Positions 48,417 to 64,000 of a stretch of DNA of 64,000 bases are shown here, one piece after another; positions within the stretch are counted from its first letter, which is position 1, and each line of letters opens with the position of its first letter. The translations under genes were made by a program, and so were the position numbers. The notes beneath the pieces were generated by a model, which worked only from the letters and a program-made list of their open reading frames with translations, searched no databases and was not told where the DNA came from. The stretch lies in contig NIVC01002746.1 of NCBI GenBank assembly GCA_002269645.1, positions 79,708-143,707 on the forward strand, given 5' to 3'. The stretch comes from Macrostomum lignano (lineage: Eukaryota).

Positions 48417-48684
48417 AGTAGTAGGGAAAAAGACGCGTACAGACCCAGAGCACTTTTTAAATAGCAGTTTTAAGGGTCTAGAGGGGGGACACGGGGGGGT
48501 AAATAAAAAAACACATCTAAACACCCTTAACACATCTAAACACCCATAATCACCCACAACCCCCCTTAATACCAAAAAAGCAATATAACCCACCCCCAAC
48601 ACTCCCCCTCGTGTCCCCCCTCTGGAACCTTATAAACGGCCATTAAAAAAGGTCTGATCTGTACGCGTCTTTTTCCCTACTACT
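48417..48684. repeat. Terminal foldback: ~83-bp inverted arms (48417-48499 and ~48604-48684), outer 27 bp identical
   Basis: AGTAGTAGGGAAAAAGACGCGTACAGA at 48417 and its exact reverse complement at 48658-48684. Confidence 0.92.
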
Positions 48685-49133
48685 ACACATCCCAACACTC
48701 CCCAACACTTCTAACACTTCCAAATCTCTATAACCCCTCGCACGCGCCGCAGGCGCGAAGGGGCACAGTCTGACCCAAACTGAGTCATAGAAAAGGAACA
48801 GTGTTTAACTATCTTAAAGCAGCTCACAAAAAGAAAAACTTTGCATGATCACCCCAAAGGGTCGCAGACAGTCTAATGACTAACGCGGGAATTCGGGGTT
48901 TCTATTATACTCATCATTTACCGAAGCGCAAACCTCAGACTCAAACTGGCTACAACGGGAAGGTGAGTTGCTTACTCATGAAAAGCGCTTTTATTATTTT
49001 CAGCACTCCACCCCAAGCTTTAATTGTGTGTATAAGAATGATGAAATCTAAAAAACTAGCCACAGCAAATAGTCTCTTATTTATGCACAACTCCTAATAT
49101 CTGTCTTTTACAAGAACTAACAAACGTATTATC

Positions 49134-50021
49134 ATGGCATCATCGAAAGAAGCAAGGATATCATCTATTGTCGAGATTGCTACGAATTTATCAAGGAAGG
49201 ATAAGTCATTAATTGGTTGCCGACTTAAAGACTTCTCGGAGAAGGAATTGGAGGCCTTACATGATAGTTTAGAAAAGTTGGATGGGGTGAGTGAAAAGAA
49301 GCCGACCACCCAAAAGAGGAAAGAGAAAGGTTATGTGGAGAATGTGCTAGAGACAATCTATCAGAAGTTAGAGGAGAACGAAGATAGAGGAGTTAGTGTG
49401 TGCGTGGAAGCGATTACACAAGGCCTATCCCACGTTGGTCTCAAGCTTGAAGGTACGACCAAACATGATTTGATTGAAAGATTTAAGAAAATAAAGTCAT
49501 CTATTGAAGCTCTATCGATTGCTAAGGCAATGATGCAATTTGAGCAGGGTAGACTTATCTACTATTTAAGCACGAAGTATCGAATGACAGAGCGAGAGCT
49601 GGCCGACTCATTCAACATAACCAGCCGGAAGGTTGAGGATTATAACAAATACTATCAACTCTGCCTTGACTACCCAGGTTTAATTTTTTCTACCTATTCA
49701 ATGGGCATAGTAATTAATTATAGTGCTGCGATTTGCAAGAAGGCAAACAACGATGCCAGGTTTAAGGAACTTCTCAAGATGCAACACGAGACAGTTGCTT
49801 TGGTTTTGAAAGATGGCAGTCCTGAAGAAAAGCAAGTTCACCAGTGGTATGAAGACAGTAAGTGATTGCTTCACTATTGTGGTAATGTAAGTAAGTTCAT
49901 ATTTTTTAAAGCTTGCTTTTATATTGTAGCTTTCAACGAAGATCCTGACGCGGAAGACAAAGCTGAGAGCGCCGCCGAAGTCCGAGAGATGTTCGAAGGA
50001 GGAAAATGGGTTAAGAAGTAA
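49134..50021 (+). CDS. Hypothetical protein with possible HTH; probably spliced join(49134..49857,49930..50021), 271 aa
   Basis: 243-codon ORF; GTAAGT donor at 49858 and TTGTAG acceptor at 49929 add 31 in-frame codons; MTERELADSFNITSRKVEDY looks HTH-like. Confidence 0.6.
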
Positions 50022-50074
50022 ATAATTTGCGTGCTATTTCCATAACTGTTAAACTGACAATCTTTTTAGTGCAT

Positions 50075-50176
50075 ACATGAATTTTTCTCATAGCTTAGAA
50101 AAAATCATGTGTGTGTGTGCACCAAACCCTTTTAGTGTATACATTATTTTTTCTAAGCTATGAGAAAAATTCATGT
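50075..50176. repeat. Perfect 31-bp inverted repeat with 40-nt spacer
   Basis: ACATGAATTTTTCTCATAGCTTAGAAAAAAT and ATTTTTTCTAAGCTATGAGAAAAATTCATGT. Confidence 0.92.
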
Positions 50177-50464
50177 GCTGTTATAGACACAATGCACCGA
50201 GGATAGAGAGAAAAATGGCCATTCATCGAATAAAAAGCGTCCATTGTGCTCCAGCGGAGCAGGCCATTTGTGCCATCGGGCACAGCCCGCGAACCATAGG
50301 TTCATTTTTGGATAGAGAATCTTTTGTGTTTGCGTCTTCTTTATTTTCTATACAAAAAAGAGTAAAAAAGAGCTATAAAATAAAACCGCTCGAGATGCTT
50401 GCACACTACCCTTTTCTTTAGTGTCTGCAACTTAATTTTTCTGTTACTAAAAATAGAACAAAAA

Positions 50465-50875
50465 ATGACACACGTTACACATATGCAAAATCTGAACGAA
50501 TTGCAGGTAGGAGACCCAGTTGAATACCGAGGTGAGGGGCTTTTTGATGTGGTTGGTACAGCAGCGAATTTCGTTAAAGACAATATGGGTCTTATAGGCC
50601 AAGCAGGCTCTGCAGCAGGTTCTATAACAAACGCTGTAAAGGGCGGAATCGAAGCAGCGAGGGCAGTAGAAGAACTAAAGAAATTGAGAGAATTTAACGA
50701 CACCCTCTCACAAATAAAAGCAATAAAAGATTTGAAACTAGCGCAGGAAACAACTCAAGCCGCACAACCAACAGAAACCCCCACGAAAAGCACACCAATA
50801 AGTAATAAAGATATTCAGGATTTTAATAAAATGTTAACCACAATTAAAGGCGGAAAAGGATTAAAGAAATTTTAA
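50465..50875 (+). CDS. Putative virion core or membrane-active protein, 136 aa
   Basis: RGEG|LFDVVG amphipathic Gly/Ala-rich segment, C-terminal KGGKG|L; AAAAATG start. Confidence 0.55.
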   Translation: MTHVTHMQNLNELQVGDPVEYRGEGLFDVVGTAANFVKDNMGLIGQAGSAAGSITNAVKGGIEAARAVEELKKLREFNDTLSQIKAIKDLKLAQETTQAAQPTETPTKSTPISNKDIQDFNKMLTTIKGGKGLKKF

Positions 50876-61437: not shown

Positions 61438-61456
61438 TTTTATAGTGGGAAATGTG

Positions 61457-62217
61457 CTATGTCTCTTCTTCCTCATTATCTTCTTTTATCAAATTTGTTA
61501 AAATTCTATGTTTCCTTTCTAACCTCGGATTGATATAAATATGTTTGTATTGGCTATCATCCCAAATTTTTTTACACATACTTTTAAATGGTTTTGTATC
61601 CAACCCAGGATTAAATCTAGCGTGAATATTTTGTAGATCATAGTTATCTAAATCAAACATTACACAACAGCTAGCATTCTTTTTTATAATCGATTCTAAT
61701 TCTCTAAAGGATTGAGTAAGATAAAAAGCTCCAATTCCATCTCCTCTACCACTAACAAAAATTTCCTTTTGCAATTCTTGATCACCGTCATTAATACAAT
61801 CATCAAAATAATTAGTGTTTTATCATGTTTTGGAATTTGATCATAGCTAATCGGGTTGATACTCTAACAGTTGGGCTCGTTCGGTGATGTTTTCTGGCTG
61901 TTGTGCCATTGTTTTACATAAATCCTCAATGTCATCGAGTGTAAATCGCGGTTCGTCATCATCCTCATATTGCTCATATGCTCTTAACATTCTAAACAAG
62001 ACATCTTTTTTTAATTTGTTTTTTAATCCATGTTTAAGAAATTCATAATATTTTATTCTAGGTTTATTAGTATAAATTATTAAATTATTATAGTCTAACA
62101 TTCCATCTGTTGTTAATAAATCGTAAACAAAGTGTGTTTTTCCTTTACCCGACCCACCATTACTAAACAAAGAAAAGGATCATTTGGAAATATCTTATCG
62201 TGTTTTGCCTTTACCAT
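61457..62217 (-). CDS. A32/FtsK-HerA-like packaging ATPase, ~254 codons after 3 frameshifts (~62160, ~61870, ~61815)
   Basis: Walker A GGSGKGKT, Walker B LIIFDDC (after correction), GR...YLTQS. Confidence 0.85.
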
Positions 62218-62297
62218 TTTTAAAGAAATAATTTAAATAGGCGCGACGGTCGGAGACCTGCGCCGCTTACAGCGGCGACGTGCTTTGCACTGCGACA

Positions 62298-63765
62298 CTA
62301 AAGTGGCGCGTCCCGAACAATCGTGCCATCAGCTTTAGCAATTGACATATATTCCTCTAGAAACAATACGTGGGCGTCAAGTGCCTGATTACCAGTTTTA
62401 TTAATCTCTAACATATAATTAAGTCCAATATTGGCTACGTTTTCTTTCTGTGCCGTTAGATCATAAACAACCACTGGATGAATGTTTAGAAACTCTGTGG
62501 GTGTATACTGAGGGACGGCATACGCTTCATTTTTAGCATAATCTTGATAATATTTTATAAAATCATTAACATTATTATTTGCTATATTTAAATTTAGGGG
62601 GTCTTTAACCGGATAATATTGATCATCAACCTGCAGGCGGATATTCTGAACATTAAACTCGTTAATAGCTGCAGCCGCATTGTCTGTTGCGGTGGCTGCT
62701 TGTTCTGCTATGGCACCGGATTGAAGCCAATATAAATCCCCATTTGCTCTTTTACTCCTTCTATTTGTTATCTTAAACCAAACAAAAATATATCTCACCC
62801 GACGTTTTGATGTCAGTATTTGCCACTGGAATGAATCCTGGTTATTATTAATGGTTCGCATAAAATGTCGACGATTCAAATAAAATATTTCCTGATCATG
62901 CGTTAACTGATTATCGATGTGTTTAAAAGTGGGGCTGTTACCTCAATAGTTGGTACGACTAATTGAATTGAATCTATACGAACTGCTATATCGGTTGAAA
63001 TTGAGGTTCCATAAAGTATCCTAGGCTGATATCCACCAGATATTTGCAACTGTATCCCAAATTTTAATCCTTTCCATACCCGATTTGGTGAGAAAAACCC
63101 AAATAGTGGAAAGATTGAAAAGTCCTGCTCATATGCTGTTGCGTGGTTAAAACTGCAACTGGGAATTTATTCTGGCGATCTATAAACCGGTGTTAATATC
63201 TTTTGTATTAGTCATAGTGGTTACAACTGGAACTATGTTTGTATTAAGGTAAGCAATTAGAGCTGCAGTATCTGCACCAGCTGCGTTTTGTACATTAGGG
63301 AAAACTACTGCTTGACCGTTACCTTTATCCGGCATCCACCCAACATTATCACCAACTTGTTTTGATAAATAAGTATAATTTAAATTTTCAAAACTCCATT
63401 AATCTCTGCGGGTTTGATGATGTCTCAACCTCAGCACCATTAACAGTTAGTTGAGCTTGGGAAAAACATTTATAAAACCAATCATTTTCTATTATTATTC
63501 CGGATCGATCTGCGATATCTCCGGCTGCAAGAGCAGTTCCATCATTTCTAGTAACAACCATCTAACGCGGAAAAACGCATTTTTCATATCCAATATAGTG
63601 TTGGTTGCGCCGATGTCAAAAGTTACCGTTCCAGTAGTAAAGTTATTTGAATTATCACTTGTTGGTAGGGTATAATTTAAATCTCTTGCTCTGACCTCAT
63701 TAATATACTGTCGGTGCTTTTTGAAATGAAATTTATCACTCCACATAGTTTTTTGTTTCAGCCAT
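62298..63765 (-). CDS. Major capsid protein (double jelly-roll), several frameshifts
   Basis: N-terminal VTFDIG...LDMKNAFFRV; C-terminal RYIFVWF, NIRLQVDDQYYP...LN, HPVVVYDLTAQKE. Confidence 0.78.
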
Positions 63766-63798
63766 TTTTTTAAGTTAAAAAAGTTTTTATGTATAAAA

Positions 63799-64000
63799 AT
63801 GAGTCAATTTATGGACGTTGATGAGAGTTAGCGATTTATAAAGAGAAGCAAAGATATTCTGATTTTGTTAGAAATTTACAAAAAGAAAGTTAGGAATACA
63901 ATTAGCTGTGTGAAAGATTTGCTGCTTTTTGTTAATCCTATTACTGGGAAAATTAGTGAACTAGAAAAACAGATAAAGATCTTCTGGAAAAAATTGCTAA
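63799..64000 (+). CDS. Start of a further element gene, divergent from MCP, apparently frameshifted and truncated by the window
   Basis: TATAAAAATG start context; reading continues only with 1-nt shifts. Confidence 0.3.

Follow-up and report, generated by a model that had tools for sequence, protein, structure and literature searches.

The Left Boundary and Identity of the Element

What kind of virus occupies the last part of this 64,000-nucleotide stretch of Macrostomum lignano DNA (hereafter, the window), and in which respects does it depart from elements already described? An earlier note had proposed a near-complete, divergent Polinton-type endogenous virus, perhaps integrase-less and perhaps a new lineage. 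The features that we recognize are the following (position, strand, assignment, basis).

47553..48416, +, broken hAT-like transposase relic, the insertion site, outside the virus; its C-terminal tail abuts the element (Pfam, frames)
48411..48416, +, candidate 6-bp target-site duplication, TGCAGC (sequence; partner outside the window)
48417..48684, no strand, left terminus: AGTAGT and a 268-nt fold-back (folding, sequence)
49134..49865, +, orphan, 243 aa, intact (ORF)
50075..50176, no strand, second short inverted repeat, 36-nt arms, 97%, intergenic (repeat search)
50465..50875, +, small Gly/Ala-rich protein, 136 aa (no family match above cut-off in Pfam, PHROGs or NCBIfam)
50886..51845, +, core-like protein, 319 aa, two adenovirus pX-like motifs (Pfam, homology)
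51928..55813, +, pPolB, a protein-primed DNA polymerase of family B (Endonuclease_7 match, relatives, tree)
55840..56217, -, orphan, 125 aa (nothing above cut-off in Pfam or NCBIfam; none in 48 related loci)
56590..57102, +, 170-aa protein whose N-terminus carries a four-cysteine motif (ORF, position)
57099..57755, -, 218-aa protein with two hydrophobic segments (ORF, position)
57768..58067, -, orphan, 99 aa (ORF)
58083..59951, -, fibre/spike gene in several frameshifted pieces (PHROG tail-fibre matches, repeats)
59989..60432, -, intact gene for a maturation protease of the adenain-like, Ulp1 type (homolog; motifs with His, Asp and Gln-x-Cys)
60652..61437, -, intact gene, probably for the minor capsid protein (penton), at one gene's distance from the MCP (homologs, size, position)
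61457..62217, -, A32/FtsK-type packaging ATPase, frameshifted pieces, Walker A (profile, sequence)
62298..63765, -, major capsid protein, MCP (relatives, fold of relative P0008, tree, PF21738 scan)
63799..64000, +, probably the beginning of a gene that is transcribed divergently and leaves the window (56-codon frame open at the edge)

The left boundary is sharp. The element opens at 48417 with AGTAGT, the 5'-(AGT)2 terminal motif of Mavericks/Polintons, read here at the left end, the one end in view; from there to the window edge at 64000 its left 15.6 kb are visible, and intact Mavericks span 12.7-24.6 kb with a mean of 16.9 (PMC8097293). As the earlier note had stated, the flank TGCAGC lies directly before this terminus. 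GC content is 33.5% inside the element and 47.2% in the preceding 3.4 kb. The proposed insertion at the 3' end of a hAT relic holds for the junction itself (48416/48417) and less firmly for the identity of the relic, whose Pfam match to Dimer_Tnp_hAT on 48082-48300 is weak (E 0.058, below the cut-off).

A chimeric join of host DNA with a free virus, or with an element from a co-sequenced organism, would involve no true insertion, and would fit the low GC relative to the flank, the single visible junction and the origin of most penton relatives from short contigs. We nevertheless give this reading almost no credence: the junction coincides exactly with the terminal AGTAGT, as expected of integration, and the flanking genes are eukaryotic and intron-bearing.

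The left end, the polymerase, the protease, the ATPase and the pX-like core gene are evident in the window, and a close relative of the MCP has been modelled with a jelly-roll fold; the identification as a Polinton-type endogenous virus is borne out by sequence and fold, by the end motif and by the order of the genes. We are confident that this is an endogenous Maverick/Polinton (Polintoviricetes), nearest to group 1 or 'Beta', lying within a dead hAT-like transposon and clipped by the window edge. Invertebrate genomes commonly carry Polintons, so one further copy is ordinary. The element is a Polinton of known type, and what is distinctive about it is its MCP subclade and its terminal fold-back.

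Mavericks carry an (AGT)2 end and two modules that face the centre; their integrase, part of the capsid module, is on the other strand from pPolB (PMC8097293). With Maverick/Polinton group 1 and the 'Beta' adintoviruses (PMC8502044, PMC8097293, 10.64898/2026.06.19.733378), our element shares the (AGT)2 end, two convergent modules, a putatively OTU-type pPolB whose window pieces have no PF03175 match, a pX-like core gene, a protease, an A32 ATPase, a double jelly-roll MCP with the likely penton one gene away, and no phospholipase seen in the element, a likeness judged by published descriptions and not by the Terrapene or Mayetiola reference sequences. It differs in an MCP outside PF21738, a fibre-like spike, the terminal fold-back, and an integrase and right end beyond view. 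Its ATPase lies in the capsid module, whereas in vertebrate Mavericks it lies beside pPolB.

The Protein-Primed Polymerase

The earlier note's pPolB is confirmed: 78 relatives were recovered at E<=1e-10 among 5443 candidates, with 46-50% identity to Polinton-type relatives over about 1080 aa. Its recognizable parts are vOTU-like Cys/His motifs, exonuclease motifs, an endonuclease VII insert (Pfam Endonuclease_7, E 9e-7) and polymerase motifs A, B and C. Frameshifts occur near 54260 and 54410, and probably also near 52180; the 85-aa ORF at 51928 presumably joins the same gene. PF03175 matched neither the pPolB pieces of the window nor the relatives P0033 and P0084, but it did match P0054. No relatives were found among phage records.

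In a quick tree, in which the window row is long (0.91), the protein fell in a 31-row clade (SH-aLRT 100) alongside Mytilus-named proteins. The Mytilus Polinton-type polymerases and the ENA relatives P0030-P0048 form one supported clade with it, share the endonuclease VII insert and are 39-45% identical over the N-terminal 700 aa; against them the window row is a long branch, and the comparison is by polymerase alone, apart from their capsid genes or context. Judged by its sequence, the polymerase is ordinary and nested with mollusc Polinton-type polymerases. A Polinton-like virus with a helicase or PrimPol replicase (Aquintoviricetes type) was also considered and rejected: a full pPolB is present, and no helicase was matched in Pfam or PHROGs.

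Among the related loci, L044 (NZ_CBDHHI010000001.1) shares an AGTAGT-type end, a local fold-back, AC-rich repeats, and the order pPolB(+), Cys-rich gene(+), hydrophobic gene(-) and last gene(-). It differs in a pPolB only 35% identical, a 129-nt fold-back, an end directly before pPolB with no genes between, and a contig cut at 12.9 kb. By position, the 170-aa four-cysteine protein corresponds to the Cys-rich gene after the L044 pPolB (pairwise E 0.5, not significant). The 218-aa protein, presumably SLATT-like, matches the similar L044 gene in position and strand, and here too the pairwise comparison was not significant.

The Virion Module

The element's capsid protein is markedly divergent. 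The window MCP pieces tile a 486-aa relative, P0008, from residue 5 to 486 at 51% identity. The model of P0008 (pLDDT 77, pTM 0.81) is a double jelly-roll that superimposes on the PBCV-1 capsid protein (Z 23.4, rmsd 3.5, 349 aligned), which answers the earlier note's call for structure prediction, and an MCP relative matched the Sputnik MCP with E 4e-13. A double jelly-roll fold is therefore supported for the window MCP, via the modelled relative rather than the window protein. A PDB sequence search with the MCP profile gave nothing useful.

An exhaustive search yielded 22 MCP relatives, and a word-index search for longer ones added none among 840 candidates. The closest in public data are 40-56% identical. 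In the MCP tree the window falls in a small subclade on a stem of 1.82 changes per site (support 100/100), and Pfam PF21738, which matches 18 of the 22 relatives, misses only the five rows of this subclade among all 23. The divergent capsid that the earlier note had described is thus real. Since the subclade escapes the Pfam jelly-roll model in all five rows, standard screens would score such elements as capsid-less. The proposal of a new lineage stands for the virion module only, where relatives lie at 40-56% for the MCP and 49-62% for the penton; it fails for the polymerase, which sits among mollusc Polinton-type polymerases.

From its homologs, size and position, the conserved 260-aa gene next in question, which has no frame break, probably encodes the penton. 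Seven relatives were found among 366 candidates (30-62% identity; close ones 49-62%), and the same placement one gene from the MCP is described in PMC4028283. Where a Polinton penton should be a single jelly-roll, its fold from the single sequence reached a pLDDT of 36, neither Pfam nor the PDB (searched with a penton profile) gave a match, and a GTDB scan with the close pentons returned 72 pattern matches and no relatives. Of the full virion set claimed earlier, then, MCP, protease and ATPase are sound, and the penton is the weak member.

The C-terminal piece of the ATPase matched a profile of four related-locus ATPases, two of them confirmed as Pox_A32, at E 1e-7, and the N-terminal piece at E 1.8 only. 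The protease, which we take to be adenain/Ulp1-like and whose catalytic motifs are read from the sequence, is 36% identical to an L023 protein (E 8e-13) and has matches in 9 of the 48 related loci; a PDB sequence search was empty. By tblastn, the capsid, ATPase, core, spike and orphan pieces found counterparts in none of the 48.

The core-like protein and spike reported earlier are both present. The 319-aa core-like protein matched Pfam Adeno_PX below the cut-off (E 0.022), and over 50 aa it shares 56% of its residues (E 1e-11) with the pX-like tail of the MCP relative P0028. Of the GasderminX (pX-like domain) and Cupiennin-like genes that go with Beta adintoviruses and group 1 Polintons, the pX-like motif is there; gasdermin and cupiennin had no Pfam match in the element. 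Position and composition make the 136-aa Gly/Ala-rich protein a candidate core or membrane-active protein. The spike has 19-residue repeats (57 nt in the DNA), tail-fibre-like stalk motifs and PHROG tail-fibre matches (E 1.5e-5 and 8.7e-5), and its pieces appear to be one gene, not two. Its C-terminal domain is a probable L-type lectin (Atlas lectin score 0.89, a lead only), and a PDB sequence search gave nothing useful. No orphan was matched above cut-off in Pfam, PHROGs or NCBIfam; the 243-aa orphan also had nothing in the 48 related loci and an Atlas result under the recognition threshold.

Frameshifts: Read Errors or Decay

pPolB, MCP, ATPase and spike are each frameshifted, a point absent from the earlier note, the breaks in the last two being deduced from frames. 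As far as its reading frames tell, the copy as assembled cannot make any of these four proteins. MCP and pPolB together have 8 frameshifts, and their roughly 1550 aligned codons contain no in-frame stop, an indel-only pattern that leans towards long-read errors. The element may alternatively be an old, decayed fossil with genuine germline mutations, a possibility that we take seriously but find somewhat doubtful. Eight aligned breaks in two genes, with several more deduced in ATPase and spike, speak for decay, as does the 1193-codon Gypsy frame that stands unbroken elsewhere in the same window; so does their placement, which shows no enrichment at single-base runs (runs of 4 or more hold 5 of the 8, P 0.21). 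Against it are the intact protease, penton and core genes, the exact outer hairpin arms, a CpG observed/expected ratio of 0.94 (no depletion), and the lack of stops, which would be decisive only with about ten substitutions to every indel (P 0.009; with three, P 0.24).

The Integrase and the Right End

The earlier note saw no integrase, and a profile search of 48417-64000 likewise found no rve integrase, while the same profile detected the window's own Gypsy integrase (E 1e-9). Pfam and PHROGs gave no tyrosine recombinase match, and the frame at 63799..64000 matched nothing, integrase included (Pfam, PHROGs, integrase profile, 48-locus comparison). The earlier note's description of the element as near-complete is unproven: in the 64 kb the terminal 16-mer has just two occurrences, both at the left end, and a reading frame is still open at base 64000.

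Could the element be a Polinton-like virus that has no integrase and reached the genome by host repair or with an integrase supplied in trans? Its 15.6 kb without rve or tyrosine recombinase matches allow this, and there is precedent in AHEV_PLV1 and Ca_PLV1, pPolB elements associated with entomopoxviruses which resemble ours in an L2 mu (pX) core protein, divergent capsids and an undetected integrase (PMC11296320). For those, the absence is reported for whole elements, whereas here the right end is out of view. Among related loci of 8 kb or more, 7 of 24 lack an integrase match and 17 have an rve-like integrase, a count inflated in that 8 rows went into building the profile, two families contribute 8 and 4 copies, and the L047 integrase may be that of a retrotransposon; Pfam rve was found on five of seven candidates checked, and rve_3 or chromo on the other two. 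Some of the absences are themselves apparent: L040 and L042 begin beyond the place that the gene occupies in their integrase-bearing family and lack it for that reason alone, so that truncated copies look falsely integrase-less, and the L044 contig ends within a gene. In the L033 family about 9 kb separate the integrase from pPolB, and a clean AGTAGT, as seen here, is the end motif that integrase-bearing Mavericks have. We consider an integrase-less virus improbable, and the suggestion is not supported. By analogy with these relatives, an rve integrase and a right inverted repeat probably lie beyond base 64000, and this integrase would have made the 6-bp target duplication.

A Fold-Back at the Terminus

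The fold-back, which the earlier note missed, begins exactly at the terminus. Its arms (48417-48499 and 48604-48684) are about 84% complementary around an AC-rich loop of 104 nt; the outer 27 bp are perfectly paired, and the inner arms differ by substitutions and indels. Its folding z is -15.7 (0 of 200 shuffles as good). Fold-backs in L044 (z -10.0) and L011 (z -23.1) likewise begin at the Maverick end motif, just upstream of pPolB. A motif scan put the background at 49 of 171,374 positions; its low-complexity filter dropped the window's own fold-back, which other scans recover. In the L033 family the mapped end lacks a fold-back at its terminus (z -4.4 to -4.8) and leaves the last bases unpaired; the hairpin is therefore not required for this polymerase class.

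We are evenly divided on whether the fold-back is a conserved feature of some pPolB Polintons with some function; it may be a local replication origin or self-priming hairpin. The alternative, a separate mini-transposon or an inverted duplication arising by accident of insertion or assembly, with no role in replication, we think rather unlikely. Perfect outer and decayed inner arms do look like the ends of a MITE, the palindrome of L011, next to a microsatellite, is almost perfect, and the L033 family end is bare. Yet no matching 5-6 bp flanks surround the fold-back in the window, L044 or L011, which disfavours a mini-transposon; diverged inner arms beside an exact outer 27 bp are unlike a fresh copy; and the layout, with AC-rich repeats after the hairpin, recurs in L044 at 35% pPolB identity. 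More specific readings of the conserved feature are less probable: that it self-primes replication, its hairpin resolved by the endonuclease VII domain, is unlikely, and it is very improbable that the element represents an animal polintovirus subclade not described before, one that has a capsid type to itself, encodes no integrase and bears parvovirus-like self-priming ends resolved by the polymerase's endonuclease VII.

For terminal hairpins in animal pPolB Polintons, the open literature gave only a preprint on Halocafeteria virophages and Polinton-like viruses (10.64898/2026.07.28.741278); descriptions of the feature or the family may exist in Repbase, in the founding papers of 2006-2007, in subscription journals or in supplements on bioRxiv. 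That preprint describes palindromes in terminal repeats, next to the target duplication, as proposed replication-priming hairpins. Those are 52-nt palindromes in protist elements with mostly non-pPolB replicases, whereas the window has a 268-nt stem-loop in an animal pPolB element.

In the life cycle that we propose, an excised linear genome would be copied by the protein-primed polymerase and pumped by the packaging ATPase into an icosahedral capsid built from MCP and penton; maturation of the core proteins would fall to the protease, and the fibre, with its lectin-like tip, would bind host glycans. On the displaced single strand, the fold-back has perhaps an even chance of re-forming a duplex end locally, which would permit second-strand synthesis without an end-to-end panhandle. 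The same fold at a 3' end would leave a primer; the hairpin or cruciform so formed could be cut by the endonuclease VII insert. To our knowledge, the start of the Polinton second strand and the exit from and entry into the chromosome are untested, and we know of no role assigned to the insert. The removal of terminal protein before integration has been called unclear (PMC11161782). Found in three distant pPolB elements, a fold-back that begins right at the terminus would offer a defined DNA substrate for studying both the start of the second strand and the role of endonuclease VII.

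Identity and Limits of the Element

The element that begins at 48417 functions like a Maverick/Polinton and very probably is one, with its right end and any integrase out of view; what sets it apart within this known type is a divergent subclade of major capsid protein (MCP) together with a terminal fold-back. It lies in eukaryotic DNA, marked by many minisatellites and by intron-bearing genes for FANCD2, an MCM-binding protein, GINS, a sorting nexin and ribosomal L16. These host genes, a GINS subunit among them, occupy 10441-46596, and their introns are rich in 4-35 nt tandem repeats. 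The host is probably an animal, and the character of the sequence may point to a free-living flatworm. Polinton insertions have already been reported from flatworms (10.1101/2025.04.19.649669).

The element starts with AGTAGT, the most frequent Maverick end motif (PMC8097293), and has a GC content of 33.5%, versus 47.2% over the 3.4 kb upstream. The junction cuts into the end of a disrupted frame whose match to hAT dimerisation is weak (E 0.058); directly ahead of this hAT-like relic, at 47028-47455, is a 63-69 nt tandem repeat with telomere-like TTAGGG units. Allowing up to 3 mismatches, the 64 kb contain two occurrences of the terminal 16-mer, both at the left end, and a frame is still open at base 64000; the right end therefore lies outside the window. 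An earlier note had described a near-complete, perhaps integrase-less, Polinton-type endogenous virus: the type stands, near-completeness is unconfirmed, and the window lends no support to the lack of an integrase.

A Polinton-Type Polymerase

The replication module centers on one gene:

52182-55813, + strand: a protein-primed DNA polymerase of family B (pPolB), in pieces, recognized by relatives and motifs

Among 5443 candidates, its first piece has 78 relatives at E≤1e-10, with top identities of 39-45%; the named ones come from Mytilus, Aquatica and Uroleucon. When frameshifts were allowed for, the polymerase aligned to three intact relatives at 46-50% identity over ~1080 residues, needing two shifts and meeting no stop. 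Exonuclease, polymerase and vOTU-like motifs are all in place, as read against a published domain plan (PMC11161782). The phylogeny that the earlier note had called for, a quick-method tree of 66 of 87 rows (those covering ≥450 query residues, plus pPolB row P0056), placed the window within a 31-row clade with Mytilus proteins (SH-aLRT 100), on a long branch (0.91). Judged by sequence, this is an ordinary Polinton-type polymerase.

The polymerase misses PF03175 and the element also carries a pX-like gene; going by published class descriptions (PMC8502044; 10.64898/2026.06.19.733378), both points are compatible with 'Beta' or group 1, to which the element may belong. Inside pPolB is an endonuclease VII insert (E 9e-7); an HNH insert, perhaps the same one, is also on record for some nematode and oomycete Polinton polymerases (10.1101/2023.08.22.554363).

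A Divergent Capsid Subclade

The last MCP piece matched 22 proteins among 1.84 billion representatives, four of them at E≤1e-30 with 40-56% identity. The best relative, P0008, is covered by window pieces from residue 5 to 486 (51% identity, six shifts, no stops). Its fold, predicted from a 23-row alignment (pLDDT 77, pTM 0.81), resembles the Sputnik, mavirus, iridovirus and PBCV-1 capsids; the top structural match had Z 23.4 and rmsd 3.5 over 349 aligned residues, and each of the first 16 rows of the search was a capsid or scaffold protein of the viral jelly-roll type. The jelly-roll fold, whose absence would have told against the earlier interpretation, is thus found in the model of a 51% relative. 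In a tree of 20 of the 23 rows (three shorter than 150 aa were left out), the window and P0008-P0010 share a stem of 1.82 (100/100) nested inside the remaining matches. PF21738 is matched by all 18 other MCP rows and missed by P0008-P0011 and the window. Because of this long-stem grouping and the missing Pfam match, the capsid represents a divergent, unnamed subclade rather than a singleton: the proposed divergence holds, but a lineage with relatives at 40-56% does not stand alone.

Another MCP relative, P0028, continues as a pX-like core tail, whether through natural fusion or as an artefact of sequencing; a 319-aa gene of the element has a pX-like motif in common with that tail (56% over 50 aa). 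An intact gene with seven relatives among 366 candidates (30-62%) is probably the penton; it lies one gene from MCP, the usual arrangement (PMC4028283). The C-terminal piece of the packaging ATPase matched a four-row profile (E 1e-7), and the spike has tail-fibre-like stalks and a lectin-like lead in Atlas (0.89, under the Atlas threshold). A GTDB scan reduced 107 pattern matches to 48 pPolB-related loci (L001-L048), nine of which have genes matching the element's protease. These Polinton-like loci lie on contigs that carry bacterial or archaeal MAG labels; genome set CBDDTI alone gives 20 of the 48, which suggests misbinned eukaryotic DNA.

A Terminal Fold-Back

At the left terminus, 48417-48499 and 48604-48684 are inverted copies (outer 27 bp exact, ~84% overall with indels included). 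The folded strand reaches -71.5 kcal/mol (z -15.7), beating 200 of 200 shuffles. Of the 586 Maverick end-motif sites in the 48 loci, 4 pair with an inverted copy close by, where the background rate is 49 of 171,374 random positions; the four are both arms of a fold-back in L044 and of a palindrome in L011. The former (129 nt, z -10.0) lies ~150 nt ahead of an intact pPolB (35% identity) and, like the window's fold-back, has AC-rich repeats behind it; the latter (159 nt, z -23.1) begins with an (AC)3A motif ~60 nt ahead of pPolB. No matching flanks surround the three fold-backs, which disfavors their being mini-transposons. Against a general feature counts the L033 family, whose mapped end lacks terminal pairing in three copies; most of the 48 loci have no mapped ends. 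A second inverted repeat in the element (50075-50176, 36-nt arms, 97%) lies upstream of the core genes.

Halocafeteria virophages and a single PLV subtype, most of them lacking pPolB, have terminal palindromes (10.64898/2026.07.28.741278), whereas this element combines a terminal fold-back with pPolB. The literature searched, including one review (PMC6431247) and with founding papers and Repbase outside its scope, gave no earlier description of one in animal pPolB Polintons. Strand displacement could free a single strand whose end folds locally into a duplex origin; a fold at the 3' end would offer a paired 3'-OH from which synthesis might start with no terminal protein involved, and the hairpin may be cut by the endonuclease VII insert.

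The Integrase Question

A profile built from eight integrases of related loci recovered the window's Gypsy integrase (E 1e-9) and found nothing better than E 1.8 in the element's part of the window, bearing out the earlier remark that none is visible. This absence is real inside the window, yet says little about the whole element: vertebrate Mavericks, which place the integrase within the capsid module, average 16.9 kb (PMC8097293), versus 15.6 kb visible here. That the element is an integrase-less Polinton-like virus is unlikely, a reading we retain because such elements are on record (PMC11296320). Against it, 17 of 24 related loci of ≥8 kb have an integrase match (a count to which the eight rows used for training, two families with multiple copies and the doubtful locus L047 contribute), and two copies, L040 and L042, lack one solely through being cut short. 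About 9 kb separates the integrase from pPolB in the L033 family, and nearly all adintovirus contigs >10 kb encode an integrase (PMC8502044; PMC11071296).

Three loci (L017, L030, L031) combine pPolB with MCP-like, penton-like, ATPase and methyltransferase-like genes, with no integrase in the stretch covered. In L011, a 4.76-kb tandem duplication (11790-21294, 99.6%) covers the pPolB end and integrase.

State of This Copy

MCP and pPolB together have eight aligned frameshifts and no stops; frame tiling revealed further breaks in the ATPase, spike and pPolB start. With 5.9% of substitutions expected to create stops, the probability of zero stops is 0.24, 0.09 or 0.009 at 3, 5 or 10 substitutions per frameshift. 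The breaks show no excess at single-base runs. We lean somewhat toward read error as the source of the frameshifts.

The 1193-codon Gypsy-type pol frame at 1-3579 (- strand; protease, RT, RNase H, integrase) is unbroken, continues past the left edge and probably belongs to a young retrotransposon. A ~2.6-kb inverted duplication at 6417-9051 (arms 75-98% complementary) contains two paralogous genes for secreted PAN-domain and lectin-like proteins, and a 60-nt inverted repeat at 34110-34261 (97%, 32-nt spacer) is possibly a MITE.
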